The notes under the pieces were generated by a model that was given only the letters and a program-made list of their open reading frames with translations, ran no database searches and had not been told where the DNA came from. From Micavibrio aeruginosavorus (GTDB lineage Bacteria; Pseudomonadota; Alphaproteobacteria; Micavibrionales; Micavibrionaceae), in NCBI GenBank assembly GCA_003241475.1, contig QFQB01000001.1, forward strand, positions 24,997 through 88,996: a stretch of DNA of 64,000 bases, written 5' to 3'. Below, one piece after another: positions 45,045 through 64,000 of this stretch; position 1 is the stretch's first letter, and every line of letters starts with the position of its first letter. The translations under genes and the position numbers were made by a program.

Positions 45045-45464
45045 ATGACCAAAATCCTTGCAGCCTGCCTGATGTTAGCCGCACAGACATACTCTGTGCC
45101 GCCGGCTGTGCTCGTAGGAATTCACCAAGTAGAAGGCGGAAAAGTGGGGCAGGCCGTCGGCCCGAACGACAACGGCACCTACGATCTCGGTCCCATGCAG
45201 ATCAACACATTGTGGATCCCCGAACTGGCCAGCAAATGGGGCGTGACCGAAGGCACCGCCTATCGCTGGGTCCGCGACGATCCTTGCACCAACATGGGCG
45301 TTTCCGCGTGGATTTTGCGCACGCACATGAACGAAACCGGCTCGCTCTCTCAGGCCATCGCCCATTATCATTCCAGAACCCCCCAATACGGCCATCCCTA
45401 CAAGGGCAAGGTCGTGGCCGCGATGCGGGCCAAGGGTTTGCTTCGCGACGCCAATACGCGCTAA
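45045..45464 (+). CDS. small lytic transglycosylase (SLT domain, VirB1/TrbN-like)
   Basis: 139 aa. Signal-like N-terminus, catalytic region GIHQVEGGKVGQAVGPNDNGTYDLGPMQINTLW, and AIAHYHS. Directly precedes dotD. Confidence 0.75.
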   Translation: MTKILAACLMLAAQTYSVPPAVLVGIHQVEGGKVGQAVGPNDNGTYDLGPMQINTLWIPELASKWGVTEGTAYRWVRDDPCTNMGVSAWILRTHMNETGSLSQAIAHYHSRTPQYGHPYKGKVVAAMRAKGLLRDANTR

Positions 45465-45603
45465 GATAAAAACATCAATTCCGCACTTTCTGTAATCGAT
45501 CAGAACCCGAATAAGGCACTGGATTACTTTATGGATTGTCTTGTCCCGTTCTTGACGAGCGGCTAAAGTATTAACTGCATATAGAACCGAGTCGAAAACC
45601 TTC

Positions 45604-46119
45604 ATGATCCACACCAAGAAAATCAGACGTTTCCTGCCGTGTGCGGCTGTTTTGGGCAGCGCATTGCTTTTGTTGTCCGCTTGCCAGCTGCCGGAAAGAA
45701 AAGCGCAGGTCGTGACCTCGCCCGACAAGGTTTCCTTAATGATGGCCGAAGCCGCCGACAAAGCCTCTACGTCTTTGGAGGCTTTGGCCGCCATCGAACA
45801 GCAAAAGTCTCCCGGCGTTGCCGTGCAGCCGATCAGCAATGCGCCTGAAGAGCTGGCGCGCGCCATCACCATCACATGGGTTGGCCCGCCCGAACAGATT
45901 CTGCGCAAGCTTGCGGATCGCGCCAGCTATAACTTCGTCACGCTCGGAAATCGTCCGCCCGTGCCGCTCGTCATCAATGTCGATGTGCAAAACCAGCCTG
46001 TTATCGAGGTCTTGCGCGATGTCGGCCTGCAACTCGGCGTGCGTGGCGACGTAAAGGTGGATGCCGACAAGAAAATTATCGAACTGCATTACGCGCCGGT
46101 AACGGGCGTGGGAGGCTAG
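45604..46119 (+). CDS. dotD: type IVB secretion lipoprotein DotD/TraH
   Basis: 171 aa. Lipobox LLLLSACQ. C-terminal N0-like domain ITITWVGPPEQILRKLADRASYNFVTLGNRPPVPLVINVDVQNQPVIEVLRDVGLQLG...IELHY matches my memory of DotD. Position upstream of dotC-dotB. Confidence 0.75.
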   Translation: MIHTKKIRRFLPCAAVLGSALLLLSACQLPERKAQVVTSPDKVSLMMAEAADKASTSLEALAAIEQQKSPGVAVQPISNAPEELARAITITWVGPPEQILRKLADRASYNFVTLGNRPPVPLVINVDVQNQPVIEVLRDVGLQLGVRGDVKVDADKKIIELHYAPVTGVGG

Positions 46120-46123
46120 GCTG

Positions 46124-46969
46124 ATGCGCTTTGGCTTCACCACATTCGCAACAATCGGCCTTTCTGTTTTGATGCTTTCCGGCGTCGCTTTTGCGGCCCC
46201 GAACAGCCTGAACGAACTTCCGCCGCCGCCGAGCAAGCAAGAGCTGCAAGCCATCCGCAAGGAAAAGCAGGATGCAGGCGAAGAAGGTAAATCCGCTCTT
46301 CCCATTGATATCCGCAATGACGCAATGAAAGAGTCCGCCTTGTCTTACGGCGCCCGCGGCGGCTTGAATTGGCGCACTTATTACATTCGTCAGGAAATGG
46401 AATCCCGCGCCCGCTACATGGACAAGGTGTTCGATTTTCACCAGCTTTTGATCGCCGCGCCGTCAGGCCTTTTGATCGAGCCTCCTGTCATCGGCGAGAG
46501 CGCGGACGCCATGATTATCGATCAAGGCGGCCTTGAAGCCGCTGTCGCAGACCGCGTTTACAACATTGGACGCAATGCCCGCATCGTTTCCGCCGCGCGC
46601 ACATGGCGCATGTATCTGGAGCGCCAATGGGGCGAGGTCAGCCCGCCACCGGATATTCTTCTTCCTGTAAACAAGGAAGAGCAGAAGAAATGGGATGCTT
46701 GGTTCGACAAAGGCTGGGAAGCCGGTGTCGCGCAGGCCGACGAGATTTTTCAGGCCGACCTCAACAAGCTGTCTTCCGATTATCAAGGAATGGTTCGCTA
46801 CCGCACCTTGCTCGCGCAAGGGATGGTATCCCCTCCCTATGCCTTGCAGGTTGATCGTGGTGTGACGGGCGGCGGTAACGAAATGCGCGTCGGCGATCGC
46901 AATGTCTCCATCACCGGCCTGCCTTCACTTCAGACAGGAACGCAGGAATGGTTGCCCGCAAACCGATAA
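46124..46969 (+). CDS. dotC: type IVB secretion outer-membrane component DotC/TraI
   Basis: 281 aa with a signal peptide. IRNDAMKESALSYGARGGLNWRTYYIRQEME...DKVFDFHQLLI...LIEPPVIGES resembles DotC. RBS GGGAGG. Lies between dotD and dotB. Confidence 0.75.
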   Translation: MRFGFTTFATIGLSVLMLSGVAFAAPNSLNELPPPPSKQELQAIRKEKQDAGEEGKSALPIDIRNDAMKESALSYGARGGLNWRTYYIRQEMESRARYMDKVFDFHQLLIAAPSGLLIEPPVIGESADAMIIDQGGLEAAVADRVYNIGRNARIVSAARTWRMYLERQWGEVSPPPDILLPVNKEEQKKWDAWFDKGWEAGVAQADEIFQADLNKLSSDYQGMVRYRTLLAQGMVSPPYALQVDRGVTGGGNEMRVGDRNVSITGLPSLQTGTQEWLPANR

Positions 46970-48117
46970 GCCTTCTTAAAGGCAAGGACAATATCGCGGA
47001 AACGTGGGCGGAAGAACCGCCGCGCTTTACCGACGATCATATCGACGCATTTCTTTTATGGTGCGTTAAGAAAAACTCTTCGGATGTTACCATCCAGACG
47101 GACCGTCCTGTTTACAACGAAATTTACGGCACGCTCTATCCGGCGACGTATCGTCCCGTCGATGCGGCGGATATGAACGTATTTCTGACCAAGATTTACG
47201 GCCCTGAAGCGGGTGCGCGTCTTGCGTCTGGAACGGATCTCGACTTATCTTACGAAATTCGCCCTGACCGCTATACCCGCATCCGTTTCCGCGTAAACGT
47301 CACGCCCGTTCTGTCGCGTGGCCGCGATTCCGCGCAGATCACAATGCGCGTTCTTCCCAACGAACCGCCGACAATGGTGGATTTGAACGTAGAGCAAGAC
47401 GTCATCAACAGCTGGGCACCGCGTCAGGGAATGGTGATTATCACAGGGCCGACGGGTTCGGGTAAAACGACATTGCTCGCCGCCGGCATCCGCATGCTGA
47501 TGGAGCGCAAGCGCGGATGCGGCAAGGTTGTCTGCTATGAAGCGCCGATCGAATATGTGTATGACGCAATCAAATCCCCGCGCTCGTTGATCTCCCAGAC
47601 GGAAATTCCGCGCCACTTGCCGGATTTCGCCCGTGGCGTGCGCAACGCCCTGCGTCGCAAACCCAATATCATTCTGGTAGGCGAAGCCCGCGACCGCGAA
47701 ACCATTTCCGCCGCGATCGAAGCCTCGCAAACAGGCCACTTGGTCTACACAACAACGCACACCACGGGTGTTGCGGCGACCATCCAGCGTATGGTGGCGA
47801 CGTTCGAACCGAACGAGCGCTCCGAGCGCGCTTATGCCTTGATGGAAACGGTGCGCCTTGTCGTTACCCAGACATTGGTCCCCAAAATTTCGGGCGGGCG
47901 TATGGGTTGCCGCGAATGGATGCGTTTTACGGATGAGGTCCGGGACAAATTGCTCGGCATGGATTTCAAGGAATGGCCCAATGAAATCCAGCGCATGATC
48001 CAGTTTTACGGGCAGCCGATGGCCAAATCTGCCGGTATTGCCTTTGATGCGGGTCTGATTGACCGCCGCACTTACATTACGCTCTCTTCAAGCACGGGTG
48101 CTGGGGGAGGAGACTAA
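46948..48117 (+). CDS. dotB: type IVB secretion ATPase DotB/TraJ (PilT-like)
   Basis: EPPRFTDDHID near the N-terminus, Walker A GPTGSGKTT, SQTEIPRHLPDFARGVRNALRRKPNIILVGEARDRETISAAIEASQTGHLVYTTTHT. These match long stretches of Legionella DotB as I recall it. Overlaps dotC by 22 nt. Confidence 0.92.
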   Translation: MVARKPISLLKGKDNIAETWAEEPPRFTDDHIDAFLLWCVKKNSSDVTIQTDRPVYNEIYGTLYPATYRPVDAADMNVFLTKIYGPEAGARLASGTDLDLSYEIRPDRYTRIRFRVNVTPVLSRGRDSAQITMRVLPNEPPTMVDLNVEQDVINSWAPRQGMVIITGPTGSGKTTLLAAGIRMLMERKRGCGKVVCYEAPIEYVYDAIKSPRSLISQTEIPRHLPDFARGVRNALRRKPNIILVGEARDRETISAAIEASQTGHLVYTTTHTTGVAATIQRMVATFEPNERSERAYALMETVRLVVTQTLVPKISGGRMGCREWMRFTDEVRDKLLGMDFKEWPNEIQRMIQFYGQPMAKSAGIAFDAGLIDRRTYITLSSSTGAGGGD

Positions 48118-48416
48118 TGGGTCAGAAAGAAGATACGGAAGAGGAACGGGCGAACTGGCACTGGCGCAATTCCATGCGGCCTGTCCGGTTTTTCGGACTG
48201 GACGCGCGTGCGGCTATCCCCTTCTTCGTTCTTTTGTTCCATGCGCGGCTGGTCACATTTGTCCTGACCCTCATGTTGACGATGGTTTTTGTCGTCCTTG
48301 AGCGGCGGGGTTTAAGCTTCAGTGCGGCCTTGCGGGCTTTCCGCGCTTGGCTTTTGGGGCAAAAACGCCCGGCGTGGATCAGCTTCCACCGCAAGAGAAT
48401 GCGGGATTTCGGCTAG
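48117..48416 (+). CDS. icmT: type IVB secretion inner-membrane protein IcmT/TraK
   Basis: 99 aa. NWHWRNSMRPVRFFGLDARAAIPFFVLLFHARLVTF fits the IcmT pattern HWR.S.R..FF.LDARA..P. TAATG overlap with dotB. Confidence 0.8.
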   Translation: MGQKEDTEEERANWHWRNSMRPVRFFGLDARAAIPFFVLLFHARLVTFVLTLMLTMVFVVLERRGLSFSAALRAFRAWLLGQKRPAWISFHRKRMRDFG

Positions 48417-48524
48417 GATCAAAGGCTTGGAGCCCGCGATTCATTCTTGTTATTTTACGAGGGTTTCAGTATTTTCGGGGTTCACGTAAAAAATTAACGG
48501 CTCACGCGAAAAGGTTTTTCGTCC

Positions 48525-49544
48525 ATGGCGGCAACTCAGTTCAAGAAACAGGCTCTTTTTCTTTTCGGCGCGGCCATCATGGGATGGTCCATGCCTGCCC
48601 ATGCAGGATTTGAATTCACGCCGCCGCCAAGTGTAGCGCCAGCCGAAGAAACTGCTCAACAGGCTACCGATGCCCCTATGCCGATCGTGTCCACCGAAGC
48701 CGTAACCGCCGAACCATTGCCGGCTCCCGATCACGTGTTGTCCTTGCCTGTCAGCTACCGCCAAACCGAAAAAGCCTATCCTGCTCCTGCCAACGAGCCG
48801 ATGGACACACAGGCGCTTTTAAACGCCACGGAAAACAACCAGATGGTAACACTGCCGGGATCGCCGCGTCCGAACAAAGCCGCGCCGTCCTCCGGACAAC
48901 TGGTCATCAACCCATATCCGCTGGATAGCGGAGAAGCCGTTCACGGCGGCGGCATGGGCCGTCTTGCGATCGAGCAGGGCATGATGGAACAATCGGGGAA
49001 ATTGCACCCTGTTCAGGTACCGGGCAACGGCCGGCCCACAGGCATGATCGCCCGCGCGAAAATCTCTTCGCGTCTTGATTCTGGCGAGCAACAATATCTG
49101 AGCCGCGAAGACCGTGAAGATGGTGCAACATTCGCGATCGCTTCTTCCATGACGCCCATTCCCGGTGGCGAAGGCGAGCCTTTATCTGGCATCGAAGCCA
49201 TGCCGCTAAAGCCGCGCGGACCTTCTGCCGCGCCCACCGCAATGCCGCGCCCTGCTGTTCCGCAAGGCTATCCGCAACCCGCGGCGGCTCCCGTTTTCGG
49301 CACCAATGCAGGTTATGCCGAAGCTGTCGGTTTCGGCCGCGATCTTCCTCTTGCGTTGGCTTTAAGTCAGGTTGTCCCGCCGGAATACAGCTACGCGTTC
49401 GGTCAGGATATCAATGTCGGCACGATGGTATCCTGGCAGGGCGGACGTCCATGGCCTGATGTATTGAACGAGATGCTCGCCCAAAACGGGTTGCGCGCCA
49501 ATATCAACGGCAAGCAAGTCACCATCGTTCCGCTTCGTGGATAA
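48525..49544 (+). CDS. secreted Pro-rich protein with a TcpQ/PilL-like C-terminal domain
   Basis: Signal peptide ...MGWSMPAHA-G, a long P/A-rich linker, and a C-terminal GFGRDLPLALALSQVVPPEYSYAFGQDINVGTMVSWQGGRPWPDVLNEMLAQNGLRANINGKQVTIVP. This resembles the TcpQ domain of PilL-type proteins, recalled from memory. Confidence 0.5.
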   Translation: MAATQFKKQALFLFGAAIMGWSMPAHAGFEFTPPPSVAPAEETAQQATDAPMPIVSTEAVTAEPLPAPDHVLSLPVSYRQTEKAYPAPANEPMDTQALLNATENNQMVTLPGSPRPNKAAPSSGQLVINPYPLDSGEAVHGGGMGRLAIEQGMMEQSGKLHPVQVPGNGRPTGMIARAKISSRLDSGEQQYLSREDREDGATFAIASSMTPIPGGEGEPLSGIEAMPLKPRGPSAAPTAMPRPAVPQGYPQPAAAPVFGTNAGYAEAVGFGRDLPLALALSQVVPPEYSYAFGQDINVGTMVSWQGGRPWPDVLNEMLAQNGLRANINGKQVTIVPLRG

Positions 49545-49553: not shown

Positions 49554-50681
49554 TTAGTTTAGATAATTCGCCAGAGTCAGCTGGGACAGCAACGCCGTTA
49601 CCTGAAACGACGCCTGAAGTTGCGTTTGTATCTGCAACAGTTTCGCGGATGCTTCCGTGATATCGACATCCTCCACTTCGCCGATGACGTCCTTATAGGC
49701 GTTGATTTGATCGGTATGCGATGCCTGAACGTTTGAAATCTGCGCTTGTACCTGCGAAAGTTTGAACTGAACCTGTTCGATCCCGTCGAGTGCGTTGTTC
49801 AATCCGGAGATGATGTTATTTAATACGGCGTAGAAATTTTCCTGTTTTTCTTCCGGTGGGTTTGGTGGCGTGTCACCGGCAATTGTCGTCGCCATCGGAT
49901 CGTTCAGAGCACCTGGTGCATATTCCACAGGCGGCAAAGCCTGCAAAACACCTAGTAATTTTACGATATCTTTCATCGATGTTTTATTGGCCAGAACCGT
50001 ATAATCAAACTCGGAGCTATCGCTGACGCGCACGGTCGTTTTTCCAGCCGTATTATTGGTCAACGCGTTGGAGAACCCAAGTACGGTGTCGGATGTCGCG
50101 TTGAACGAGGCGATAAACTGGTCGGTGGTGATTGTGCCGTCGCCCCAGTCTCCGATCATGCCGGAGGCGACGAGAGGCGGCTGCGTCAAATCGGAAGAAT
50201 CCGGAATAAACTCGCCGAGCGCGCTTTGAAAAAGGCCAGTATCACTAATAGGGGCCTGCGCGGTGTCGCCGCCGGCGAAAAGATAACGCTCGCCATCCGT
50301 CTGGTTGATGTTGTCCAGAATGAAGTTATAGACGTTTTTCGTCAGCTGCTTGATGCTCTCGAGATCGGGATAATCCCCCTCCTGAACGGCTGTCGTGAGG
50401 CCGCTGACGATCGTTCCAACCTGCGTTTTGATTTCGGAAACGGATGTGAGCATCAATTTGATGCGGCGGTCCGCGTTGGTAATGTTGTTGGAATAGGTTT
50501 CAAGCGAGTTTACCCCGGCGCGCGCGCGCGTTGTGCGGATGATATCGCTACCAAGACCGGACAGAGTTTGCGTCTTTTTACCCGAAGAAATCTGCGTGGA
50601 GAGATCGCCCAAAGTGGATTGCTGGGTTTTCAGACGCGAAATCTGGTCAAGATACTGTCCAAGGGTTGAAATATTGGCCAT
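49554..50681 (-). CDS. flgL: flagellar hook-associated protein 3 (hook-filament junction)
   Basis: 375 aa. Flagellin-type N-terminus (ISRLKTQQSTLGDLSTQISSGKK) and C-terminus (DVDITEASAKLLQIQTQLQASFQVTALLSQLTLANYLN). Follows flgK by 17 nt. Confidence 0.85.
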   Translation of the reverse strand: MANISTLGQYLDQISRLKTQQSTLGDLSTQISSGKKTQTLSGLGSDIIRTTRARAGVNSLETYSNNITNADRRIKLMLTSVSEIKTQVGTIVSGLTTAVQEGDYPDLESIKQLTKNVYNFILDNINQTDGERYLFAGGDTAQAPISDTGLFQSALGEFIPDSSDLTQPPLVASGMIGDWGDGTITTDQFIASFNATSDTVLGFSNALTNNTAGKTTVRVSDSSEFDYTVLANKTSMKDIVKLLGVLQALPPVEYAPGALNDPMATTIAGDTPPNPPEEKQENFYAVLNNIISGLNNALDGIEQVQFKLSQVQAQISNVQASHTDQINAYKDVIGEVEDVDITEASAKLLQIQTQLQASFQVTALLSQLTLANYLN

Positions 50682-50698
50682 GTGACTCTCCTGTTACC

Positions 50699-55594: not shown

Positions 55595-55597
55595 CCT

Positions 55598-56944
55598 CTA
55601 TTCCAGCGTGACAAGTTCGCCGTCTTCGTTCAACTGGCGGATTTCATTCGACAAGGCATCTTGCTGTTCCATCAATGCGGTTTCCAGCATGACCGATAAA
55701 GTTGCCTCGCTTCGAAGAACGCTACGATACATATCCCGACGTTGCATAAGTTCGATGGCCTGCATGGCGACGGTTTTGCGCTCTACGTTTGCTGGTTTGT
55801 CGTAGAGTTCTGTGTAGAAGTTCGGGTTTTGATACAGTTTTTTAGTCAGAATCTCCATTTGAGCAAAGTAGCTTGGACGATCTCCAAGGAGCTTTTCGAT
55901 CTCCACGTCGCTCTGCACGCCCATTTCCTTCATGATGGCATACAGATAAGGCTCAACTTCTTTTTCACCCTGCGATTTCATTGAAGCGATAGCCGCAAAA
56001 GAGTTGCTTGCGACAGATCGTTTTGCGGCAATGGCGCGGATCGCCATATAGTTTCTTGCCAGATCCGTAGGTTCTCCTGCCTGATTGGTCAAAAATTTCA
56101 GAGCAACGCTCGGGGCCACCCTATGTGCATAGAGATTGGAGGCCAGGGCAAAAAGGTCTTCTTCGTTTGCTGAAATCGTTTGCGCGTGAAGGTTTGCATC
56201 GTGATCCGGGTCGCCCTCCGCCGTAAGATCGAGTTTCAACGTAAGCGGTTCGTCGACAAGATTGGTATAGCTAATGTCATTATTGATACGTGTGCTATCG
56301 ACCGATCCCGCCGGGCATAACGGTTGCAGACCATTTCCGTTATCTGATGTGCTGCAATAAATCTCGCGGTATTGGTTGATACGGCTCAGGGTATCGGCTG
56401 CTTGGCTGCCGCCCGCAAGAGTATCGCCTGAGAGCAATTCACGTTGTATCACTCTGTTCGAAAAGGCCATGGCCGAAAGGTCTGTGTTGCGGTCGGAAGC
56501 GGCAAGAGAACGGGTGATCGTACCGAAGGTGCACATGCCCTCGCTGGGGTGATAGTCCTTGTGCGCGCGCGCCATTAATTCCTGAAAGAGCCTTTGAGTT
56601 TCAAGCTGGTGTTTCGCGTCGAGAAAGCTCCCTATGATCATGACCTGCTGCATGGCTGTTGTCGTCAGCTGTTCGGTCATCAGCATCAGTGCTGGCAGGA
56701 TATTTTGTTCGAAGAAAGTTTTTATCAGCCATTCGCGGTGGTTGGTGAATTCGTCATGAACATGCTGGATCGTTCCTTCGGTCTGTTGCTGGGAAATAGT
56801 CGTACAGTTTCCATCGCAAGCGCTGACTTCGCCGCAGCAAAACTGCGCCTTGGCGCTATTGGCGCCGCCGCCTATCAGGAATGCTACGAGCGCAAGCGCA
56901 AGCGCTGTTTTTTTAAGGATTGATGCGGTTGCGGTATTTTTCAT
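55598..56944 (-). CDS. secreted protein, paralogue B of a T4BSS-embedded family
   Basis: 448 aa. Signal peptide ...GGGANSAKA-Q, Cys cluster FCCGEVSACDGNC, then the shared domain (FLDAKHQLETQRLFQ, AHKDYHPSEGMCTFGT, YCSTSDNGNGLQPLC, RPSYFAQMEILTKKLYQNPNFYTELYDKPANVER). TAATG overlap with paralogue C. Confidence 0.8.
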   Translation of the reverse strand: MKNTATASILKKTALALALVAFLIGGGANSAKAQFCCGEVSACDGNCTTISQQQTEGTIQHVHDEFTNHREWLIKTFFEQNILPALMLMTEQLTTTAMQQVMIIGSFLDAKHQLETQRLFQELMARAHKDYHPSEGMCTFGTITRSLAASDRNTDLSAMAFSNRVIQRELLSGDTLAGGSQAADTLSRINQYREIYCSTSDNGNGLQPLCPAGSVDSTRINNDISYTNLVDEPLTLKLDLTAEGDPDHDANLHAQTISANEEDLFALASNLYAHRVAPSVALKFLTNQAGEPTDLARNYMAIRAIAAKRSVASNSFAAIASMKSQGEKEVEPYLYAIMKEMGVQSDVEIEKLLGDRPSYFAQMEILTKKLYQNPNFYTELYDKPANVERKTVAMQAIELMQRRDMYRSVLRSEATLSVMLETALMEQQDALSNEIRQLNEDGELVTLE

Positions 56945-58989
56945 TAGTTTTTACCTCCCGCAGGATCCATGTTGCCTATGATGTTTTCTATCTTGCCCTG
57001 CTCTTTCTGGAGCATGGTTTCCAGCAAGACGGAAAGGACGGCCTCGCTACGCAACAAACTGTTGTATAGGTCACGGTCCTGCATCAGGCCGATGGCCTGT
57101 AGCGCAGCCCCTTTACGCTCGATGTTGGCGGGTTTGTCGTAAAGGTCTGTGTAGAATACAGGGTTTTGGTATAACTTTTTGGTCAACACTTCCATTTGTG
57201 CGAAATAGCTGGGGTTCGCGCCGAGAAGCTTTTCGATTTCCGCATCATCGGCAACGCCGAGTTCCTTAATGATGGCTTTTGTATAAGGTGCGGAACCGGG
57301 AACATTTCCGGCGGCGCGCATAGCCGTCAAGGCGGCAAAGGAGTTTTGCGCAACAGAGCGTTTTGCGAAAATCGCGCGCTGATCGAGATATTTTTCCTGA
57401 GCGCTCAAGCGGATTCTTTCTTCTTCTTCGCCGTCGGCATAGCCAAACAGCGAAGGAGATATTTTTGTCGGCATTTCATGCGAATACAGGTTTGCAGCCA
57501 ATGCAAAAACATCCGTTTCATCCGCGGTTGCTGCGGGATCAAGCTGGAAGTCCATATCGAGCGTCAGGCGGGATTCGATGTTGCGGGTGTAGTCGACATC
57601 GATATTCCGCCGTGCCGGCGTAACAGCGGCAGGGCAGATAGTGCCAAGTCCGTTGCCGTTGTCTGCCTGATCGCAATAAGTAGATATAAATTGCGCCATG
57701 CGTCCGCGCAGATCGCTGTCTTCGAATTCATAGGAGATGTTTTGCCCCGATGCGGTTTGCCTTTGCATCATGCGGTTGGCATACGCAATCTGAGCGAGAT
57801 TCGAGCGGCGATCGGATTCTGCAAGCGAGCGCACAGCCGTGCCGATTGTACACATACCCTCGCTGGGGTGGTAATCTTTGTGGGCTTCTGCAGTGAGCGT
57901 CTGGAACAAGCGCTGGGTTTCCAGCTGGTGCTTCGCATCGAGGAACGTGCCAATAACCTCAACCTGATAGATGCCGGCAACTGTGAGCTGTTCGGCCATC
58001 AGCATCAATGCGGGCAGGAGGTGTTCGATAAAGAAGGTGGTTAGCAACCAGCGTCTGTGCACTTCGAACTGGTCCGTTACATCGGTGCGGATCTGGACAT
58101 GGTGTTGGGGAATGGAAACCATGCAAATTGTGCAAGCGCAGTTTCCGATAGAGCCAAGACCCAGCGCTGCAAATGCCTGCGACCCGAGGCCGTTGAAAAG
58201 ACCACCCGCCAGCGCGCTGGTTAGGTCGCCGCCAAGCAGGGCGCCAAGAGCATTGTCCACAAGGCCGCCAGCGAGAGCATTCAATCCGCCGATCAAACCC
58301 TCTTGCAAGCCAGCGAGGCCGAGAAGGTCTGCAAGACCTGGAACAGCGGCGGCGATAGTATTCACCAATGCTTCGATTGATTGGTCGTTCAAAAGATTGT
58401 TCATCGCGTTGACATCAAAATTGGAACCAAGCGCGGCTTGTAGAACTTGGTCAATAGCCGTTGCGGCCTTTTCGGGCGAAAGCGAGCTGAGGGCGTTTTT
58501 CAGGCTGGGATCCGATAAAGCTTGTTGCAGGCCTGCGGCAGTTGTTATCTGCCCTAAATTTTTATTGGAAGAGATCGCATTTGCCACATTCGCGTCGACA
58601 GTCCCGGCGAACATCCCGTCCACCAGCGCTGCGGCGGTTTGAGTGCTGGCACCGTTCGCGGACAGGTTGGTAAGAACGCTATTCCATTGCTGTGCCGATG
58701 CGCCTGAGGGATTTGCGGAAAAAAGTGTATTGGCAATGGCCGAAGTATCCGCGCCGCTTTGCAACAACTGCGTTACATTGGTTCCTAGAGCTCCCGGGTT
58801 TTGTAAAAGCGTCTCGGCCGTAACGCCCGTGGCAGATGTTTGGGCGTATGCTGGTTTTAACAAGGCGTTCGCAGGCATGCCTGACACAAATGTCAAAAAC
58901 ATGCATGAGCCTAGTCCAAGCCTGCGTAGTAACCCGTTTCTCACCGATGCCCTCTCCAGCAAAATCCCCGCGCCGCGATGGTAACCCAT
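56944..58989 (-). CDS. secreted protein, paralogue C of a T4BSS-embedded family (N-terminal A/L/G/N-rich low-complexity region)
   Basis: The ORF-track start 59052 is a TTG; ATG 58987-58989 (MGYHRGAG...) with AAGGGA upstream is preferred. Signal peptide ends ...KPAYA-Q. About 230 aa of low complexity follow (GLIGGLNALAGGLVDNALGALLGGDL), then the Cys cluster GNCACTIC and the shared domain. Confidence 0.8.
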   Translation of the reverse strand: MGYHRGAGILLERASVRNGLLRRLGLGSCMFLTFVSGMPANALLKPAYAQTSATGVTAETLLQNPGALGTNVTQLLQSGADTSAIANTLFSANPSGASAQQWNSVLTNLSANGASTQTAAALVDGMFAGTVDANVANAISSNKNLGQITTAAGLQQALSDPSLKNALSSLSPEKAATAIDQVLQAALGSNFDVNAMNNLLNDQSIEALVNTIAAAVPGLADLLGLAGLQEGLIGGLNALAGGLVDNALGALLGGDLTSALAGGLFNGLGSQAFAALGLGSIGNCACTICMVSIPQHHVQIRTDVTDQFEVHRRWLLTTFFIEHLLPALMLMAEQLTVAGIYQVEVIGTFLDAKHQLETQRLFQTLTAEAHKDYHPSEGMCTIGTAVRSLAESDRRSNLAQIAYANRMMQRQTASGQNISYEFEDSDLRGRMAQFISTYCDQADNGNGLGTICPAAVTPARRNIDVDYTRNIESRLTLDMDFQLDPAATADETDVFALAANLYSHEMPTKISPSLFGYADGEEEERIRLSAQEKYLDQRAIFAKRSVAQNSFAALTAMRAAGNVPGSAPYTKAIIKELGVADDAEIEKLLGANPSYFAQMEVLTKKLYQNPVFYTDLYDKPANIERKGAALQAIGLMQDRDLYNSLLRSEAVLSVLLETMLQKEQGKIENIIGNMDPAGGKN

Positions 58990-59231
58990 AATCCCTTGAA
59001 AAAACGAAGTTTCTTCAGGGCTTAGGAAAATTCTACCACAGTTTAAAACCAAAACGCACGTTTGTCTCCCCCGCTTTGAGCGGGTTTTTCATTTTCGGGG
59101 GGACAACTTGCAAGTCGGAAATTGTTCTTTGTGGATGAATATGTTCCAATAGGGAGAGATTTGGCTTTTTGCAGGCCCGATCTGCTACATGACGTAATCA
59201 ACTTTCATCCAGCTGAATCTTTCGGATATCC

Positions 59232-59966
59232 ATGGCAGACGACATAGAAGACAAGGCACAAAACCCTCGCAACTCCAGGCCGCCTGCGCGTCCGGGCGCG
59301 AAACGCCCCCAGAAATCCGCGATGAGCAAGTCCGAGGCGATGGATACAAGCGGCCTTGGCCGCGTTGTTGTCCGTAACGAATTCTACCGTGACGGCTATA
59401 GGCTAGCGCTCCGAGTGGCGGTCATCCAGTGTTTTGTCATTTTTGGCCTTATTGGCGCGATGTTCTTCATTATATATGTTCATCAGCCTGAAAACCGCTA
59501 TTTCGCGACAACCGAGGACGGCCGTTTGATCCCGATGGTCCCGCTCACCCAGCCGAACCTGTCCACGCCGGCCTTGCTATCATGGGTGGCGCAGGCGGCC
59601 TCCGAGACTATGTCGTTCTCATTCAGCAACTACCGCCGCAACCTCCAAGAAGCATCGCGCAATTTCACACGTTCGGGATGGGAGAGCTTTTCGGCGGCGC
59701 TTCAACAGGCGCGAATCATCGAGTCGATCGAGGCGAATACGCAAGAATTGAGCGCCGTCCCGCGGGGTGCGCCGATCCTGAAGTCCGAGGGTATCGTGGC
59801 AGGGCAGTATCAATGGGTCGTTCAGATCCCTATGATACTTAGCTTCGTGTCTGGATCGAAGTCCCGGGCGGAAAACTGGCTGGTCACAATCGTTATCGTG
59901 CGCGTTCCAAGGCTTGAAAGCCCGAACGGTGTGGGGATTGCGCAATGGATTGCCGTGCCGGGTTAA
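59232..59966 (+). CDS. icmL: type IVB secretion inner-membrane protein IcmL/DotI
   Basis: 244 aa. VVVRNEFYRDGYRLALRVAVIQCFVIFGLIGAMFFI (the NxFYRDGY-plus-TM hallmark) and a periplasmic domain with PALLSWVAQAASETMSFSFSNYRRNL. Followed by icmK. Confidence 0.85.
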   Translation: MADDIEDKAQNPRNSRPPARPGAKRPQKSAMSKSEAMDTSGLGRVVVRNEFYRDGYRLALRVAVIQCFVIFGLIGAMFFIIYVHQPENRYFATTEDGRLIPMVPLTQPNLSTPALLSWVAQAASETMSFSFSNYRRNLQEASRNFTRSGWESFSAALQQARIIESIEANTQELSAVPRGAPILKSEGIVAGQYQWVVQIPMILSFVSGSKSRAENWLVTIVIVRVPRLESPNGVGIAQWIAVPG

Positions 59967-60014
59967 CGGGTGCGCTTTGGCCTGCCTGATGTTGCAAAGT
60001 TTGGTATAAAGATT

Positions 60015-61478
60015 ATGACGAGACGAAAAATTTCAATTTCTTTCAGCCGCCGGAGTAAAGCCGCTCTTGCCGCGACCTTGGTTTGCGGCGTAGCGTTGAT
60101 CGCATTGTCGTTGCCGGTGGTGGCTCAAGAGGCTGAGCAACAACTTCCAGATGCGCTGGTGGATCAGCAAATTCCCAATGCCTTTCCGCAAAGCGGCGAG
60201 GCAACGACACAACAAAATACTGATTCGGCCCCAGCGGCAAAAGCGCCAGCGAAAGCGACACCTTCTTCGAAGGCTGTATCCGAGATGGAAAGCAGCGAGC
60301 AAACACAAACTGCGCCAGCTGTGGATAATGCGCCTGCGCAACCCGAGCAGGCCAAATTGGTTCCGTCGCGCGCTATGGGGGCGGCGGCACAAAAGGTTCA
60401 AAGCGGTGGGGCGGCGGCCCCAAGTGCCGATCCGTCCGCAGAAGGGGTTGATCTTTCGCACGATGTTGCGCCTGCTTTGCCCGATATGCTTGATCGGTAT
60501 GCGACTCCTCAAACGGAAGGTGGCGCTCCGGAACAGCAAAATGGCGAAGCGTTGCCAGAAGTGTCCGACCGCACCATGGTTGAATTACAGGCCAGCGGGT
60601 TTGAGAATGCTGGGGCTCAGCGGGTTAAGGTCCCTGTAGATGGTTTCGGCGGCGGCAAAACGCCAGAGGAGATGCAAGAAGAGATCCGTAGCGAGGCTTT
60701 CGATGCGGCGATTACCGGCTTGTTCCCACTTAGTCCCGATCAGATTCAAGGGCTTCTTAAACGCTACGACGGCACGCAAAAAGCTGCCAGCGAACCGACA
60801 TATGCCACGCCGAAGCCGGAAATCAGCGTGCAGAACGTTTCGCTGGATCCCGGCGTTGCGCCGCCTACCATCAAAACGGCTGTCGGCAATGTCACGACGC
60901 TCAACATGCTTGATGCGACAGGCGCTCCTTGGCCTGTGCAGGATGTAACATGGGCTGGGGATTTTGAAATCGTTGAGCCGGAAGAGGGCGGGCATATCGT
61001 GCGGATCACGCCGATGAGCCATTTTGCCCGCGGGAACATCGTTATCCGTCTTCTGACGCTCAAAACGCCTTTGACCCTGACGCTGGAAACCAGCCGCGAT
61101 GTTGTGCAGTACCGCGTCGATGCGCGCATCCCCGAATATGGACCGTTTGCCAATGCGCCTCTTATGCAGGGCGCAAAGTCGACTTTGGTGGCGGGATCAC
61201 CCGATCTGACGTCGCTCTTGGACGGCGTTATGCCGGGCGGCATGACCAAATTGAGCGTGAACGGCGTCGATGGCCGCACCACGGCTTATGAAATGAACGG
61301 CACCACTTATGTTCGCACGCCGCTGACGCTATTGTCGCCTGCGTGGATGAGTTCCGTCTCGTCTGCCGATGGCATGAATGTATATGCCCTGAACAACGCC
61401 CCAGTCTTGTTGCTGTCCGACGGCGGCGAGTTCATGCGGGCCACTTTGAAGGAAAAAGAGGATCTTCTCGATGAGTAA
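60015..61478 (+). CDS. icmK: type IVB secretion outer-membrane core protein IcmK/DotH
   Basis: ATG 60015 (MTRRKISISF...SLPVVAQ-E signal) is preferred over the ORF-track GTG 59970. A/P/Q-rich N-terminal extension. Conserved C-terminal half: LSPDQIQGLLKRY, PKPEISVQNVSLDPGVAPPTIKTAVGNVTTLNMLDATGAPWPV, GNIVIRLLTLKTPLTLTL, VQYRVDARIPEYGP. Confidence 0.85.
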   Translation: MTRRKISISFSRRSKAALAATLVCGVALIALSLPVVAQEAEQQLPDALVDQQIPNAFPQSGEATTQQNTDSAPAAKAPAKATPSSKAVSEMESSEQTQTAPAVDNAPAQPEQAKLVPSRAMGAAAQKVQSGGAAAPSADPSAEGVDLSHDVAPALPDMLDRYATPQTEGGAPEQQNGEALPEVSDRTMVELQASGFENAGAQRVKVPVDGFGGGKTPEEMQEEIRSEAFDAAITGLFPLSPDQIQGLLKRYDGTQKAASEPTYATPKPEISVQNVSLDPGVAPPTIKTAVGNVTTLNMLDATGAPWPVQDVTWAGDFEIVEPEEGGHIVRITPMSHFARGNIVIRLLTLKTPLTLTLETSRDVVQYRVDARIPEYGPFANAPLMQGAKSTLVAGSPDLTSLLDGVMPGGMTKLSVNGVDGRTTAYEMNGTTYVRTPLTLLSPAWMSSVSSADGMNVYALNNAPVLLLSDGGEFMRATLKEKEDLLDE

Positions 61479-62760
61479 CGACGATCTCGACAATGATCTG
61501 GATGTTGAGAACTTCGACGATGGCGAAGGTTTTGACGATTTCAGCAAAAAGGGTTCGCTCGGCGACATGTGGCGAAACAACCCGATGGTCAAAATCGGGG
61601 TTATTCTGGCCGCGTTCGCCATCATTGTCGGCGCTATCATCCTGTTTGGCGGCTCTGCCGAGAAAAAGCAGCGGTCATCCGTGGCGGGCGCATCCGATAT
61701 AACAGAGGCGCCAGGTAGTAGCGAAGTGTCCGCGACCATGAAGGAAGCCATCGACACCAAAAACCTTGAAAATGCCGAAAACGCCCTTCGCACCAGCGGC
61801 TCTGCCGTACCTATTCCTGTCGAGCCGCCCAAAGGCGTTATTCCCGTGCCTGTCGAGGAGATGAGTGGCGAAGATCCGCTTGAGCGCTGGCGCCGGATGC
61901 AAGAAGAGCGCGTCCGCCAGCAGGAAATGCTGGCGCAAGCCAAACCGCAAACGGCTCCGGTGGCGCCGCCCGTCGATACAAAAACACCGGCTGTCAATGC
62001 CATGTCGCAGGCGATGGTGACGCAAATGCAGTCGATTTTGCAAAACCAGAAAATTCCCGAGCCGCGATTCAAGAAAATCACGGGCGTGACATTCGTCGAA
62101 GATTCCGAACGCAAGAAAATGGAAAAACTGGCCGCCGCCCAGCGCGAGATGCAGCAAATGCAGGCCGCGGCGATGGTGGACGAACAAGTTGAAAATATCA
62201 TTATTCCGGCAGGCACGATTGAATACGGTCAGCTTTTGATCGAGGCGAACACGGATGCGCCCGGTCCTGTTCTGGCGCAGATCGTCTCCGGTCCCTTGAA
62301 AGGTTCGCGCGTTTTGGGTTCCTTCAAATCCACGGACCAATATCTGACGCTGGAATTCTCCCAGCTTGTTCTGGACGGCATCAGCTATCCTATTCAGGCT
62401 ATAGCGATCGACCCTGATACGACGATGCCGGGCATGATCACGGAGATCGACCATCGTTATTTCAAGCGTGTTATTTTGCCTGCCGCAGCAGCTTTTGTTT
62501 CGGGCTTCGCCGATGCGGTGTCCGAATCCGGCACGACCAGCGTTTACATTTCGGATAGCTCTGTTACGCAGTCCACATCCGATAAGGACAGCAAACAAGA
62601 AGTAGCTTCGGGGATCAGCGAGGCCGGCGATGAGCTAAGCGATATTATGGATGAAGAGGCCGATCGTACCCAGCCGATGCTACGGGTTGCCGCTGGAACG
62701 CCTATGGGCGTTTTGTTTACCCAGCCGGTGACGGACACAAACCTTGCATCAACGCGCTAA
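61471..62760 (+). CDS. icmE: type IVB secretion core protein IcmE/DotG (VirB10/TrbI-like C-terminus)
   Basis: 429 aa. Acidic N-terminus, TM segment (VKIGVILAAFAIIVGAIILFGG), Pro-rich linker, and a TrbI/VirB10-type domain IIIPAGTIEYGQLLIEANTDAPGPVLAQIVSGPLKGSRVLGSF...LVLDGISYPIQAIAIDPDT. 8-nt overlap with icmK. Confidence 0.8.
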   Translation: MSNDDLDNDLDVENFDDGEGFDDFSKKGSLGDMWRNNPMVKIGVILAAFAIIVGAIILFGGSAEKKQRSSVAGASDITEAPGSSEVSATMKEAIDTKNLENAENALRTSGSAVPIPVEPPKGVIPVPVEEMSGEDPLERWRRMQEERVRQQEMLAQAKPQTAPVAPPVDTKTPAVNAMSQAMVTQMQSILQNQKIPEPRFKKITGVTFVEDSERKKMEKLAAAQREMQQMQAAAMVDEQVENIIIPAGTIEYGQLLIEANTDAPGPVLAQIVSGPLKGSRVLGSFKSTDQYLTLEFSQLVLDGISYPIQAIAIDPDTTMPGMITEIDHRYFKRVILPAAAAFVSGFADAVSESGTTSVYISDSSVTQSTSDKDSKQEVASGISEAGDELSDIMDEEADRTQPMLRVAAGTPMGVLFTQPVTDTNLASTR

Positions 62761-62820
62761 ATTCCCTATTTGTAAGGGCTAGGGGTCCATAGATCGCTTT
62801 GAGGAAAACGGGCGCAAAAC

Positions 62821-64000
62821 ATGACGAACAAGAATAAAAATCAAGGTTCCGGCGAATTCGAAGATGATTTCGAAGATATCGAGGATTTTTCCGATGCGGA
62901 TTTTGACGCTTCGGCCTATGAAGACGTCGATTATGACGATCTCCCCGGTGAAGAGGGCGACGATTTCGAAGGCGATGACTTTGAGGGCGACGAATGGGGC
63001 GACGAAGAAGAGGGCTCAACCGACAAGAAGGGCAAAAAGAAGAAGGAAAAAAGCGGCGGCGGTCTTTCTTTTAATGCCATGATGATTATCGGCGCAGTCG
63101 TCGTCGGCGGCGGCGTCATGGCTCTGAACATCATGAATCAAACGGCGGCCGTGAAGGCTGAAGAAAAACCGATCTGGCGCTCCATGCTGAATATCAGCGG
63201 CGTCATGGATGGAATGCTTTTCGGCGATGCGGAGGAAGGACCTTCCGCAGAAGAAATTGCCAAGCAAGAAGCCGCGCAACAGGAGGGCTTCCTCAATAAC
63301 CCCGAATTGGCAGTTCCGCCGCCTGTGGAAACAACGCAAAATACGCCGCCGCAGCCGATGCCGATCGCACCTGACAGCGGCGCTGTTCCCGGCGAACAGT
63401 TGACGCCGATGCCGACACCGTCTGCCGAAGCGCCGCGCGGTCCGGATGAAACGCCTCCTGTATTGGTGGAAGCAACCCCTCCCGTTGTTCCCGATACGCC
63501 GATTACGCCGGATGCGCCCGTCGAGGCTACAGAAAGTGCGCCGTCTGCCGAAGACATTTTGAAAAAGGCGATCGCAAACCGCGAACAAAAAGGACAGGCC
63601 GAAGAAAGGGCGCCTGAAACATCAGCTGAAGCGTCTAAGCCCGTTATAGAAGCCAAACCGGTTGAATTGGCTTTGGAAGAAAAGACGGAAGAGCCAACAC
63701 CAATCGTTACGTCCACACCAACGGTTTCACCACAAGAGGTTGAGGCCAACAAGCAGGCTGTGTCCTCATTGGAAACCAAACTGGACTCTTTGCTCAAACG
63801 TATGGATCAGATCGAAAGCGATCTGGGCGCCGTAAAGCAGGGTAGTGGTACGAGCACGCAGGAACTGGAGCAAACAGTGGCGGCGCTTCGTGCGGAAATC
63901 GATACGCTCAAAAAACGCCCCGCGCAGGTTGAAAAAGTTGTCGAGAAGATTGTCGAAAAAAAATCGGCGCCGATTGCTGATGCGGCGGAAGCTGACGAGG
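62821..64000 (+). CDS. icmG: IcmG/DotF-like bitopic membrane protein (3' end outside window)
   Basis: Not in the ORF track because it has no stop. Hand translation from ATG 62821 stays open to nt 64000. Very acidic N-terminus (EFEDDFEDIEDFSDADFD), one TM segment (MMIIGAVVVGGGVMALNIM), a Pro-rich periplasmic region, then coiled-coil-like LETKLDSLLKRMDQIESDL. The call rests on position after icmE and on topology only. Confidence 0.5.
   Translation, partial: MTNKNKNQGSGEFEDDFEDIEDFSDADFDASAYEDVDYDDLPGEEGDDFEGDDFEGDEWGDEEEGSTDKKGKKKKEKSGGGLSFNAMMIIGAVVVGGGVMALNIMNQTAAVKAEEKPIWRSMLNISGVMDGMLFGDAEEGPSAEEIAKQEAAQQEGFLNNPELAVPPPVETTQNTPPQPMPIAPDSGAVPGEQLTPMPTPSAEAPRGPDETPPVLVEATPPVVPDTPITPDAPVEATESAPSAEDILKKAIANREQKGQAEERAPETSAEASKPVIEAKPVELALEEKTEEPTPIVTSTPTVSPQEVEANKQAVSSLETKLDSLLKRMDQIESDLGAVKQGSGTSTQELEQTVAALRAEIDTLKKRPAQVEKVVEKIVEKKSAPIADAAEADE

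Follow-up and report, generated by a model that had tools for sequence, protein, structure and literature searches.

Organization of the locus

Positions 45045 to 64000 of the window (the whole 64,000-nucleotide stretch analysed) carry type IVB secretion system (T4BSS) core genes in two arms, with flgL, flgK and a four-gene operon between them on the opposite strand. The source is a Micavibrio-like alphaproteobacterium, and the window encodes the greater part of the core structure of its chromosomal type IVB (I-type, Dot/Icm-like) system. The initial annotation had recognized a Dot/Icm- or IncI-like locus in an alphaproteobacterial chromosome, and this is borne out: all of the genes it named lie at the coordinates given, far above chance. 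The left arm and the genes leading into it are:

43007..43879, +, DsbG/DsbC-like periplasmic thiol:disulfide isomerase, CPHC motif (Pfam Thioredoxin_2/4)
44004..44933, +, conserved locus-linked protein, 309 aa, neighbour of the Dsb gene here and in relative L053
45045..45464, +, lytic transglycosylase, SLT (Pfam SLT, 4.3e-8)
45604..46119, +, DotD/TraH lipoprotein (Pfam DotD, 5.8e-33)
46124..46969, +, DotC/TraI (Pfam T4SS_TraI, 2.6e-78)
46948..48117, +, DotB/TraJ PilT-like ATPase (TIGR02524, 2e-117; Pfam T2SSE, 1e-38)
48117..48416, +, IcmT/TraK (NF038220, 9e-26)
48525..49544, +, PilL-like protein, 339 aa, with signal peptide, Pro-rich linker and C-terminal STN-like domain

The DsbG-like protein scores 120.6 bits against the NCBIfam DsbG model, below the cut-off of 124, and matches by BLASTP (5e-7) a thioredoxin-fold protein encoded beside icmL on Aminobacter plasmid pSR4. 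Its gene also adjoins the locus in L053, which is rearranged, and it is likely an accessory of the secretion system. The 309-aa protein matched nothing in Pfam or NCBIfam. The SLT gene is kept 5' of dotD in the related loci L019, L022, L046, L057, L066 and L080, and tblastn with DotC matched 3694 plasmids annotated TraI/DotC. The PilL-like gene, which was missing from the initial gene list, is kept 3' of icmT in most relatives; its Pfam STN match (5.6e-5) falls below the cut-off, and its family aligns with IncI PilL by hhalign (94%, E 8.5e-8).

The right arm comprises:

59232..59966, +, DotI/IcmL (TraM) (Pfam T4BSS_DotI_IcmL, 1.7e-60)
59970..61478, +, DotH/IcmK (TraN) (Pfam T4BSS_DotH_IcmK, 2.8e-80)
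61471..62760, +, DotG/IcmE (TraO), short form, 429 aa (TrbI, 2.1e-11; NF033900, 2.5e-47)
62821..64000, +, IcmG/DotF-like protein in the TraP position, truncated by the end of the window, with acidic N-terminus, one TM segment and Pro-rich periplasmic part

DotG lacks the pentapeptide-repeat region; only Legionella, Coxiella and Rickettsiella have the long forms. The ORF beginning at 62821 had no profile matches, and its assignment draws on its position and topology and on its resemblance to a syntenic gene in relatives, which encodes 515-533 aa; comparison with TraP by hhalign (E 0.004) does not demonstrate homology. The initial prediction that this arm continues past nucleotide 64000 is supported by related genomes, where the rest of IcmG is followed by IcmD-like genes, IcmJ/DotN (NF038221) and DotO/IcmB, a TraU/DotO homolog of about 1000 aa with a Walker-A motif. 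DotO and IcmJ were seen in relatives alone, the window ending before them. An IcmC/TraQ-like gene is also present in the lineage.

Housekeeping genes surround the locus, both in the window (CoaE, DnaQ-like, SecB, MltA) and in relatives (UbiH-like, P-II, YidC, Def, Fmt).

The genes between the two arms

The following minus-strand genes separate icmT and the PilL-like gene from icmL:

49554..50681, -, FlgL, hook-associated protein 3 (Flagellin_N/C)
50699..53146, -, FlgK, hook-associated protein 1 (FlgK_D1, 9e-36; Flg_bb_rod; Flg_bbr_C)
53250..55073, -, IcmX/TraW-like paralog 3, 607 aa, sharing a C-terminal domain of about 400 aa ("last" positional ortholog)
55040..55594, -, membrane-anchored protein, 184 aa, in a TraX-like position after a TraW-like gene
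55598..56944, -, IcmX/TraW-like paralog 2, 448 aa, signal peptide and core domain alone
56944..59052, -, IcmX/TraW-like paralog 1, up to 702 aa, same C-terminal domain ("first" positional ortholog)

In about 60 of the 75 related loci FlgL is found at this place too, and in M. aeruginosavorus ARL-13 the one FlgK listed (GMV2433) is encoded well away from the flagellar clusters. We regard both as genes embedded in the locus and do not assign them to the T4BSS.

The arms had been described as lying 10.6 kb apart, with flgL-flgK and a four-gene operon between them. The operon is not foreign to the system: of its four ORFs (53250-59052), three are paralogs of one family (702, 448 and 607 aa) and, by hhalign and by AlphaFold/Foldseek, TraW/IcmX homologs, that is, T4BSS components; the TraW link is drawn from sequence profiles and the IcmX link from a predicted structure. 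Most of the "spacer" operon consists of unannotated copies of a central channel/tip protein. None of the three products matched Pfam or NCBIfam. Paralog 2 aligns with the TraW family at 96% (E 4.9e-9), and the whole family (265 sequences) at 96.9% (E 1.5e-10) over about 290 columns, compared with E 0.52 for a reversed control; the TraW-like templates adjoin DotA/TraY on plasmids. The TraW profile fails to reach IcmX by sequence. The AlphaFold model of paralog 2 (pLDDT 80.7) has long N- and C-terminal helices and an extended middle domain, an IcmX-like plan, and Legionella IcmX (9ngy) was its sole significant Foldseek match in the PDB (E 4.9e-4; next 0.34), with TM-scores of only 0.32-0.34.

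The N-terminal extensions are variable and reach about 1000 aa in other family members. That of paralog 1 is rich in Gly, Ala, Leu and Asn, and the true start of this protein is probably an internal Met. Paralog 3 has a conserved Cys-rich N-terminal domain (alignment A3), with a TES...GKYQF motif; a faint resemblance to lytic transglycosylase/lysozyme was not significant (E 1.5) and gained no support on further search. The 184-aa gene is confined to closer relatives. Its product had no profile matches, and homology to TraX is unsupported (hhalign E 0.014).

Nearest neighbours across loci hold the same first, middle or last position for 240 of the 265 sequences, and identity is about 50% within one locus and about 70% between loci. 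These observations argue that the three paralogs are ancient and ordered.

Conservation and relation to known systems

The layout is conserved in about 75 related species of the predatory Micavibrio group, as judged from 75 loci of species-representative genomes, with protein identity as low as 41%. Every core ORF is intact and keeps its syntenic place; each locus has 3-5 IcmX-like genes, whose order and copy positions between icmT and icmL are fixed in every relative, and then IcmD-like genes, IcmJ and DotO. Retention of layout and position to such low identity points to vertical descent over a long time and not to a mobile element, and the locus indeed looks vertically inherited.

The initial annotation saw a hybrid gene order, with an IncI-like left arm and a Legionella-like right arm. 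Comparison with IncI1/IncK plasmids (R64-like tra, MPF_I) upholds the first part, the left arm being in traH-I-J-K order. The second is not distinctive, since icmL-K-E-G-(C/D)-J-B, although common to this locus and Legionella/Coxiella, is also IncI traM-N-O-P-Q-R-T-U. From end to end the locus is colinear with one plasmid, E. coli pG5295-2 (NZ_CP038347.1), whose order is traH(DotD)-traI(DotC)-traJ(DotB)-traK(IcmT), a foreign insert, traM(DotI)-traN(DotH)-traO(DotG)-traP-traQ/R-traT(IcmJ)-traU(DotO). The arrangement dotD-dotC-dotB-icmT plus icmL-icmK-icmE-icmG is the ancestral IncI order and not a hybrid, and even the insert has a counterpart in the foreign genes between traK and traL. Both systems have TraW and PilL homologs and a DotG of 429 aa. 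Unlike IncI, the Micavibrio locus is chromosomal and vertically inherited and has flgK and flgL embedded; no relaxase/nikAB was found, nor, nearby, TrbA/TrbC (DotM/DotL) or TraY (DotA). Its 3-5 TraW homologs carry N-terminal extensions and lie on the opposite strand between traK and traM, whereas IncI TraW follows traU. Legionella-type models give DotB and DotG higher scores than IncI models do (DotB, 392 bits with TIGR02524 and 243 with TraJ; DotG, 161.6 with NF033900 and 83.1 with TraO).

With the Dot/Icm systems of Legionella pneumophila and Coxiella burnetii (pT4SSi) the locus has in common DotB, C, D, G, H, I and IcmT, together with IcmJ and DotO of its relatives, an IcmX-like fold, the absence of a relaxase at the locus, and genes split over more than one place. 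It differs in its repeat-less DotG, multiplied IcmX, and dotDCB adjoining icmT, which is the IncI arrangement. The host differs too: it belongs to a lineage of bacterial predators and is not known to parasitize eukaryotic cells from within.

Among plasmids, the nearest homologs of DotO (40-45%) and DotC (43%) are encoded by T4BSS-like conjugation modules in alphaproteobacteria (Aminobacter pSR4, Martelella, Bosea pBSY19_1, Methylorubrum AM1 megaplasmid), which also have a thioredoxin-fold gene beside icmL and small IcmC/IcmD-like genes homologous to p129 (E 4e-10). The TraW-like proteins of these plasmids link our family to IncI TraW, but are encoded by a single gene beside DotA/TraY, and relaxase and T4CP are present. 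The VirB5/VirB6 (TrwJ/TrwI) central stalk of type IVA systems, a different T4SS class, is a functional analogy alone.

Probable function

As first reported, scanned window ORFs gave no matches to relaxase, T4CP, DotO, DotA, DotM or IcmJ. Relaxase, DotL/IcmO, DotM/IcmP and DotA/TraY are likewise missing from about 1.6 Mb of related loci, DotA, DotL and DotM from the 10 kb beyond DotO in one relative, and IcmS/W/Q/R, DotU/IcmF, DotK and DotJ from the locus. A search seeded with alphaproteobacterial IcmO gave no match traceable to Micavibrionales among the 120 listed. Because DotA/TraY, DotL/IcmO and DotM/IcmP are missing from the searched loci, a complete, functional machine is not demonstrated. 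Genes missing from one locus may still lie elsewhere in the genome, however, since Legionella Dot/Icm genes occupy two chromosomal loci.

Taken as a whole, the data are best explained by a chromosomal T4BSS core in IncI order, with TraW/IcmX paralogs, that delivers proteins in cell-cell contact; we put the probability of this reading at roughly three in four. Between conjugation and effector translocation, left undecided in the initial annotation, we favour protein delivery into target cells, possibly prey: the setting is chromosomal with housekeeping flanks, no relaxase is nearby, and synteny holds in about 75 species. Most likely, then, this is a domesticated protein-delivery machine for contact with prey or host cells, and not one of active conjugation. 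The bacteria-killing X-T4SSs of the Xanthomonadales, again a functional analogy, are cited as showing toxin delivery into bacteria by a T4SS; the analysis identified no X-Tfe-like effectors.

A conjugative or mobilizing I-type system still capable of DNA transfer, for example an ICE or plasmid integrated in the chromosome, would account for the IncI gene order and for the nearest plasmid homologs of DotO and DotC lying on relaxase-bearing alphaproteobacterial plasmids. The PilL-like gene and the PilV-like (Shufflon_N) genes of some relatives recall the IncI thin-pilus module, and T4CP and relaxase could sit elsewhere in the genome. Such a system is improbable, given the housekeeping flanks and long vertical inheritance. 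Moreover, the scanned window ORFs and the flanks of the 75 related loci yielded no gene for a relaxase, T4CP, integrase, partition or replication, the sole tRNA gene is 9 kb upstream with no integrase match among scanned neighbouring ORFs, and tblastn of 72,556 plasmids gave no match to the IcmX-like family.

It is also unlikely that the locus is a decaying T4BSS remnant lacking a secretion channel, or a set of parts co-opted for another role such as adhesion or envelope anchoring, as the lack of DotA, DotL and DotM near the locus in any relative might suggest. The 2011 genome analysis of cultured ARL-13, too, reported no type IV secretion system. A degenerate remnant had been envisaged if downstream sequence lacked DotO/DotL/DotA equivalents; with respect to DotO this does not apply, as syntenic relatives encode it, and maintenance of the layout through IcmD-like genes, IcmJ and DotO in about 75 species argues against decay. 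DotB, DotO, DotC, DotH and DotI keep strong profile scores, and the IcmX-like family (1205 representatives at 50% clustering) has many invariant residues. IcmJ/DotN, a partner of DotL-DotM in Legionella, is conserved.

That the three paralogs are secreted substrates, toxins or adhesins with an IcmX/TraW-like helical fold, and not channel or tip subunits, is very unlikely: the variable extensions, the Cys-rich domain, the lack of a DotA partner gene beside them and the release of Legionella IcmX into culture supernatant would fit, but TraW homology covers nearly the whole domain, gene positions are fixed, the proteins have Sec signal peptides instead of T4SS C-terminal signals, and the lysozyme idea found no support.

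For a protein-delivery machine, Legionella provides a model, in which IcmX, the VirB5 equivalent, forms with DotA a pentameric central protochannel and tip. By analogy, DotB and DotO would energize the machine, and the IcmX-like proteins would lie on the central axis and be pushed outward upon target-cell contact. These Sec-exported, Cys-rich proteins would probably be oxidized by the DsbG-like isomerase encoded close by. That there are 3-5 paralogs, conserved in position but differing in their N-terminal extensions, suggests a mixed (hetero-oligomeric) tip or alternative tips.

Gene content and order of the locus

ORF listing and profile scans recovered every gene named in the initial annotation at the position it had been given. 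Its placing of the locus among the type IVB systems, which include the IncI-type conjugation machines and the effector injectors of intracellular pathogens (Legionella, Coxiella), was also right. The outer-membrane core is present as DotC, DotD and DotH (Pfam matches), and so are DotG with its TrbI domain, DotI, the ATPase DotB and IcmT (Pfam and NCBIfam).

Features of the type IVB locus (window coordinates; E-values refer to the profile named)
43007-43879, DsbG-like isomerase
45045-45464, + strand, SLT (left arm)
45604-46119, + strand, DotD (left arm; Pfam DotD 5.8e-33)
46124-46969, + strand, DotC/TraI (left arm; Pfam T4SS_TraI 2.6e-78)
46948-48117, + strand, DotB (left arm; TIGR02524 2.3e-117)
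48117-48416, + strand, IcmT/TraK (left arm; NF038220 9e-26)
48525-49544, PilL-like protein, 339 aa, after icmT (signal peptide and C-terminal STN-like domain)
49554-50681, - strand, FlgL
50699-53146, - strand, FlgK
53250-59052, - strand, four tightly packed ORFs of 607, 184, 448 and 702 aa
59232-59966, + strand, DotI/IcmL (right arm; Pfam DotI_IcmL 1.7e-60)
59970-61478, + strand, DotH/IcmK (right arm; Pfam DotH_IcmK 2.8e-80)
61471-62760, + strand, DotG/IcmE (right arm; VirB10-like TrbI domain 2.1e-11; NF033900 2.5e-47)
from 62821 past the window end, + strand, ORF at the icmG position (acidic N-terminus, one TM segment)

In the IncI reference plasmid, E. coli pG5295-2 (NZ_CP038347.1), traH (DotD), traI (DotC) and traJ (DotB) are followed by a 96-aa gene at the position of traK (IcmT), a phospholipase-D nuclease and a 1255-aa protein, and then by traL, traM (DotI/IcmL), traN (DotH), traO (DotG), traP, traQ, traR, traS, traT, traU (DotO), traV, traW, traX and traY (DotA). 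Both arms of the window locus are colinear with this single system, and the gap that separates them, between traK and traL/M, has its counterpart on the plasmid. In Legionella the dot/icm genes lie at two loci, with dotDCB and icmT in separate ones, and a hybrid of the IncI and Legionella orders had originally been proposed. No hybrid is necessary, because IncI and Legionella share the order of the right arm; the arrangement is plainly of the IncI type. Against profile models, the window's DotB scores 392 bits for the Legionella type versus 243 for IncI, and its DotG 162 versus 83. In length this DotG is of the short TraO-like form, whereas the long repeat-bearing DotG is particular to Legionella, Coxiella and Rickettsiella.

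The 339-aa gene after icmT had been overlooked. Its family aligns with PilL, a lipoprotein of the IncI thin pilus (hhalign 94%, E 8.5e-8). Homology of the icmG-position ORF to TraP was unsupported by hhalign. The DsbG-like isomerase encoded ahead of the left arm resembles the thioredoxin-fold protein whose gene adjoins icmL on the Aminobacter plasmid pSR4, and in L053, a rearranged relative, its gene remains adjacent to the locus; the isomerase may serve to oxidise the Cys-rich IcmX-like proteins described below. Directly before the Dsb gene and the left arm lie genes for a sigma-54-dependent response regulator, an M48 peptidase, LemA and a FIST-domain protein (36657-38174 on the - strand, and 39894-42918). 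Promoter and terminator scans returned fewer sites than, or no more than, shuffled sequence.

The spacer operon and the TraW/IcmX family

The 702-, 448- and 607-aa proteins of the operon between the arms (paralogs 1, 2 and 3) have in common a C-terminal domain of about 400 aa, with 40-49% identity and many invariant residues, and by inspection all three begin with a signal-like sequence. The 448-aa protein had no match in Pfam, NCBIfam or PDB sequence searches, even at E 10, and the 702- and 607-aa proteins likewise had none; nor did tblastn find the family on plasmids. Weak but colinear similarity to the 448-aa protein was found in a single IncI TraW (E 0.015). With a TraW profile we detected a 371-aa protein on pSR4 (E 4.6e-5), and similar TraW-like proteins on Martelella and Cupriavidus plasmids adjoin DotA/TraY. 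When 14 of these TraW-like sequences were used as the template, the operon family aligned with them over 285 columns (hhalign 96.9%, E 1.5e-10), versus E 0.52 for the reversed-template control, and a second run gave 96% and E 4.9e-9 over 291 columns.

Structural comparison leads to IcmX. An early AlphaFold model of the 448-aa protein built from 29 sequences had a pLDDT of 65 and matched IcmX weakly (E 0.26); from 92 sequences the pLDDT was 80.7. Helices occupy residues 39-129, 136-168, 293-321 and 383-435 of the model and the middle is loop-rich, a plan of long N- and C-terminal helices around a middle domain that is also the one described for IcmX. The sole significant Foldseek match in the PDB was the IcmX chain of 9ngy, the in-situ DotA-IcmX protochannel (E 4.9e-4, probability 1.00), the next match being at E 0.34. 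The link to IcmX is structural and positional, since TM-scores are modest, at 0.32-0.34, and a PDB search by sequence with the TraW profile fails to reach IcmX. Significance was attained only with the 14-member TraW alignment, which contains alphaproteobacterial bridging sequences, and with the deeper AlphaFold alignment. Profile and structure, as two independent lines, identify three of the four spacer genes as homologs of TraW/IcmX. The operon between the two arms belongs to the machine.

Plasmid TraW-like genes are followed by TraX and TraY/DotA, but the Micavibrio paralogs do not adjoin DotA/TraY. An alignment of the family showed no relation to DotA/TraY itself (hhalign against IncI TraY, E 0.39). 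The 184-aa gene comes after the 448-aa paralog, which is the position of traX after traW; hhalign support for its being a TraX homolog is lacking.

The family comprises 1205 representatives at 50% clustering, many with long N-terminal extensions. Sources that name its members call them hypothetical, and in one case an uncharacterised membrane protein; the homology thus assigns a function to a large set of hypothetical proteins for which Pfam and NCBIfam have no model. Among 265 members taken from the related loci, paralogs of one locus are about 50% identical, whereas the best counterpart from a different locus reaches about 70%. In 240 of the 265 cases, the closest counterpart from a different locus also sits in the matching slot (first, middle or last). 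These patterns indicate that the duplications are old and that their order has been maintained. Counting truncated loci too, there are three copies in 36 loci, four in 14 and five in 17.

The last, 607-aa paralog carries in addition a conserved Cys-rich N-terminal domain (54354-55000, - strand), kept in about 20 species with invariant Cys residues and the motif TES...GKYQF...SGLLAAxHLGG. It has no significant match to families or structures. A lysozyme or transglycosylase was considered, but the PDB profile comparison with phiKZ gp144 gave E 1.5, and hhalign against SLT and the IncI transglycosylase was negative.

Conservation and chromosomal setting

A conservation scan of the family alignment against one genome per bacterial species returned 229 stretches. 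The 75 loci retained from these all come from Micavibrio-like MAGs. Homologs are numerous (844 clusters for DotG and 1559 for the 448-aa protein), and those that are named come from Micavibrio or from unclassified alphaproteobacterial MAGs. Proteins of the window itself had no database entry or occurred only on metagenome contigs of 1.7-2.6 kb. Two long metagenome contigs, with DotG 75% and 65% identical to that of the window, have the same layout. On both, icmG is followed by one or two small membrane proteins of 129 aa, by IcmJ/DotN (NF038221, 7.7e-27), and by a protein of about 1000 aa with a central Walker A motif, whose TraU/IcmB matches extend to 3785 plasmids, the best being on alphaproteobacterial megaplasmids (40-45% identity). 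Beyond this DotO/IcmB-like protein come a 192-245-aa protein and housekeeping genes (UbiH-like, P-II). The DotO-like gene follows icmJ in every syntenic relative with enough sequence, and the window ends before it. The right arm therefore does continue, as had been supposed, and the locus as a remnant with no DotO downstream is at odds with its presence in relatives.

Mapping by local tblastn showed that in nearly all loci dotD-dotC-dotB-icmT-(pilL-like) faces flgL-flgK and then three to five IcmX-like genes, after which icmL-icmK-icmE-icmG, one to five of the 129-aa genes, icmJ and dotO run divergently. This arrangement is kept down to 41% protein identity. Among the exceptions, one locus (L058) lacks flgKL at the site, and L053 has the Dsb gene and a 309-aa gene in place of the left arm. 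The flanks are housekeeping genes, both in the window (CoaE, a DnaQ-like exonuclease, SecB, MltA) and in relatives (YidC, EngB, RmuC, Def, Fmt, TruA). The position is the same in about 75 species, the ORFs that were scanned include no integrase, and the sole tRNA gene is a tRNA-Ala (35970-36045). The conserved arrangement and the housekeeping flanks argue for an old, vertically inherited chromosomal locus, not a mobile element, and the system appears to be a core, order-wide chromosomal feature of the Micavibrio-type lineage.

The flagellar genes flgL and flgK (49554-53146, - strand; related loci L010-L084) lie inside the locus in about 60 of the 75 related species and share the orientation of the IcmX-like operon. 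Between the 607-aa gene and flgK there are 103 nt, without a terminator-like site. The one FlgK listed for M. aeruginosavorus ARL-13 (GMV2433) maps at a distance from that genome's other flagellar clusters.

Small accessory genes vary among the relatives. The 129-aa family matches two small pSR4 proteins encoded between the icmL and dotO blocks (E 3.9e-10 and 5e-6), and its members are membrane proteins of the IcmD/IcmC (TraR/TraQ) class. One to five of these IcmD/TraR-like genes stand in tandem between icmG and icmJ (L004, 13412-14219, and related loci), and each product resembles a pilin in topology, with a signal peptide followed by two hydrophobic helices. An IcmD-like half is also fused to a TraQ/IcmC-like half (NF033883, 2.9e-9) in a protein of 317-323 aa (L003, 19897-20850, - strand; L101, 9863-10834; L104, 3297-4139; L105, 10001-10882). 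In distant relatives the fusion gene stands where it is expected, between icmG and icmJ; in the clade of the window it has shifted past the UbiH-like and P-II genes, along with a 233-aa unknown. Two distant relatives (L025, 18442-21257, - strand; L072, 13546-16651, - strand) have two or more PilV-like genes (Shufflon_N, E 1e-5 to 1e-7, one match above the Pfam cut-off) after the PilL-position gene next to flgL, a hint of an IncI-type thin-pilus module.

The absence of relaxase, T4CP, DotO, DotA, DotM and IcmJ matches noted originally holds for the scanned ORFs of the 64-kb window. Searches of all related loci by tblastn with a Ti-type relaxase and T4CP were also negative, though a relaxase may lie farther off in the genome. 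Neither DotL/IcmO nor DotM/IcmP had a tblastn match in the window or in about 1.6 Mb of related loci, and an IncI TraY query gave none for DotA, a poorly conserved protein. In one relative, the 10 kb beyond DotO likewise contain no DotA, DotL, DotM or relaxase, only the 233-aa unknown, the IcmD/TraQ fusion gene and housekeeping genes. IcmS-IcmW(-LvgA), IcmQ-IcmR and DotU-IcmF had no match among ORFs scanned with Pfam and NCBIfam, a scan that covered small ORFs incompletely, and these genes may be located elsewhere. DotN belongs in Legionella to the coupling complex with DotL and DotM, so the conservation of IcmJ/DotN in the relatives argues that DotL and DotM exist elsewhere in the genome. A Bosea IcmO-like query gave 3209 matches, none of the 120 listed being tied to Micavibrionales; one IcmO-like match that was inspected had an ICE-like context. 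Many metagenomic IcmO/DotL-like coupling proteins (P0410, P0435, P0438, P0456, P0472 and others) are about 1200 aa long and have a match to LAGLIDADG_3 (PF14528), which suggests intein-containing type IVB coupling proteins.

Possible function, and other putative surface or secretion genes

Beyond what was observed directly (the parts list, the TraW/IcmX homology of the paralogs and the synteny), a working scheme can be drawn from Legionella. [quoted passage not shown] IcmX-type proteins would assemble into a central pentamer, a plug or channel displaced outward when a target is touched; IcmX has recently been shown to form the central protochannel and to be pushed in the direction of the target membrane. 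Several conserved paralogs with differing N-terminal extensions suggest that such a tip could be mixed or exchangeable.

Because the locus is chromosomal, has no nearby relaxase and is conserved in a lineage whose cultured members are epibiotic predators, its role would most likely be contact-dependent protein delivery. Prey bacteria would be the obvious target, in a lineage whose cultured members feed on bacteria from outside; eukaryotic cells are a possible alternative. Our specific proposal, to which we give a probability of only about 0.3, is that the system is the device with which epibiotic predators of the Micavibrio type feed on or kill prey by contact, in which an expanded set of paralogs of IcmX (the VirB5 equivalent) and small IcmD-like membrane proteins form mixed or interchangeable tips that pierce the envelopes of bacterial prey. 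If correct, no earlier type IVB system is directed at bacteria instead of eukaryotic hosts or conjugation recipients. The machine is a concrete candidate for the mechanism by which Micavibrio attaches to and drains its prey. The interest of the locus lies in this possible link to bacterial predation and in an IcmX subunit multiplied three- to five-fold, each copy with its own N-terminal extension; the copies are natural variants with which to study how the IcmX/DotA channel is built, for example as a homo- or hetero-pentamer.

None of the papers searched describes the locus, how widely it is conserved or its multiplied IcmX. The genome paper on M. aeruginosavorus ARL-13 (2011; PMC3189940) reported no evidence for either a type III or a type IV system, a statement that, as regards type IV, our results suggest merits re-examination. 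A survey from 2022 (PMC9418006) remarks in passing that TXSScan calls a relaxase-less pT4SSi in seven marine Micavibrionales genomes, and NCBI and JGI label some of the locus genes DotG/IcmE.

Other large proteins are encoded elsewhere in the window. Three tandem giant ORFs (1907-20704, - strand; 2202, 1952 and 2110 aa) contain RCC1 repeats or RCC1-like propellers and LamG (Laminin_G_3) domains, one of them also C-type lectin and Lcl_C domains; they may be adhesins of the cell surface or be secreted. Some Legionella effectors, too, have RCC1-type repeats. Further on, a 1920-aa right-handed beta-helix protein (24781-30543, - strand) adjoins a ShlB/FhaC-type POTRA transporter (30929-32665, + strand), which together look like a two-partner secretion pair.
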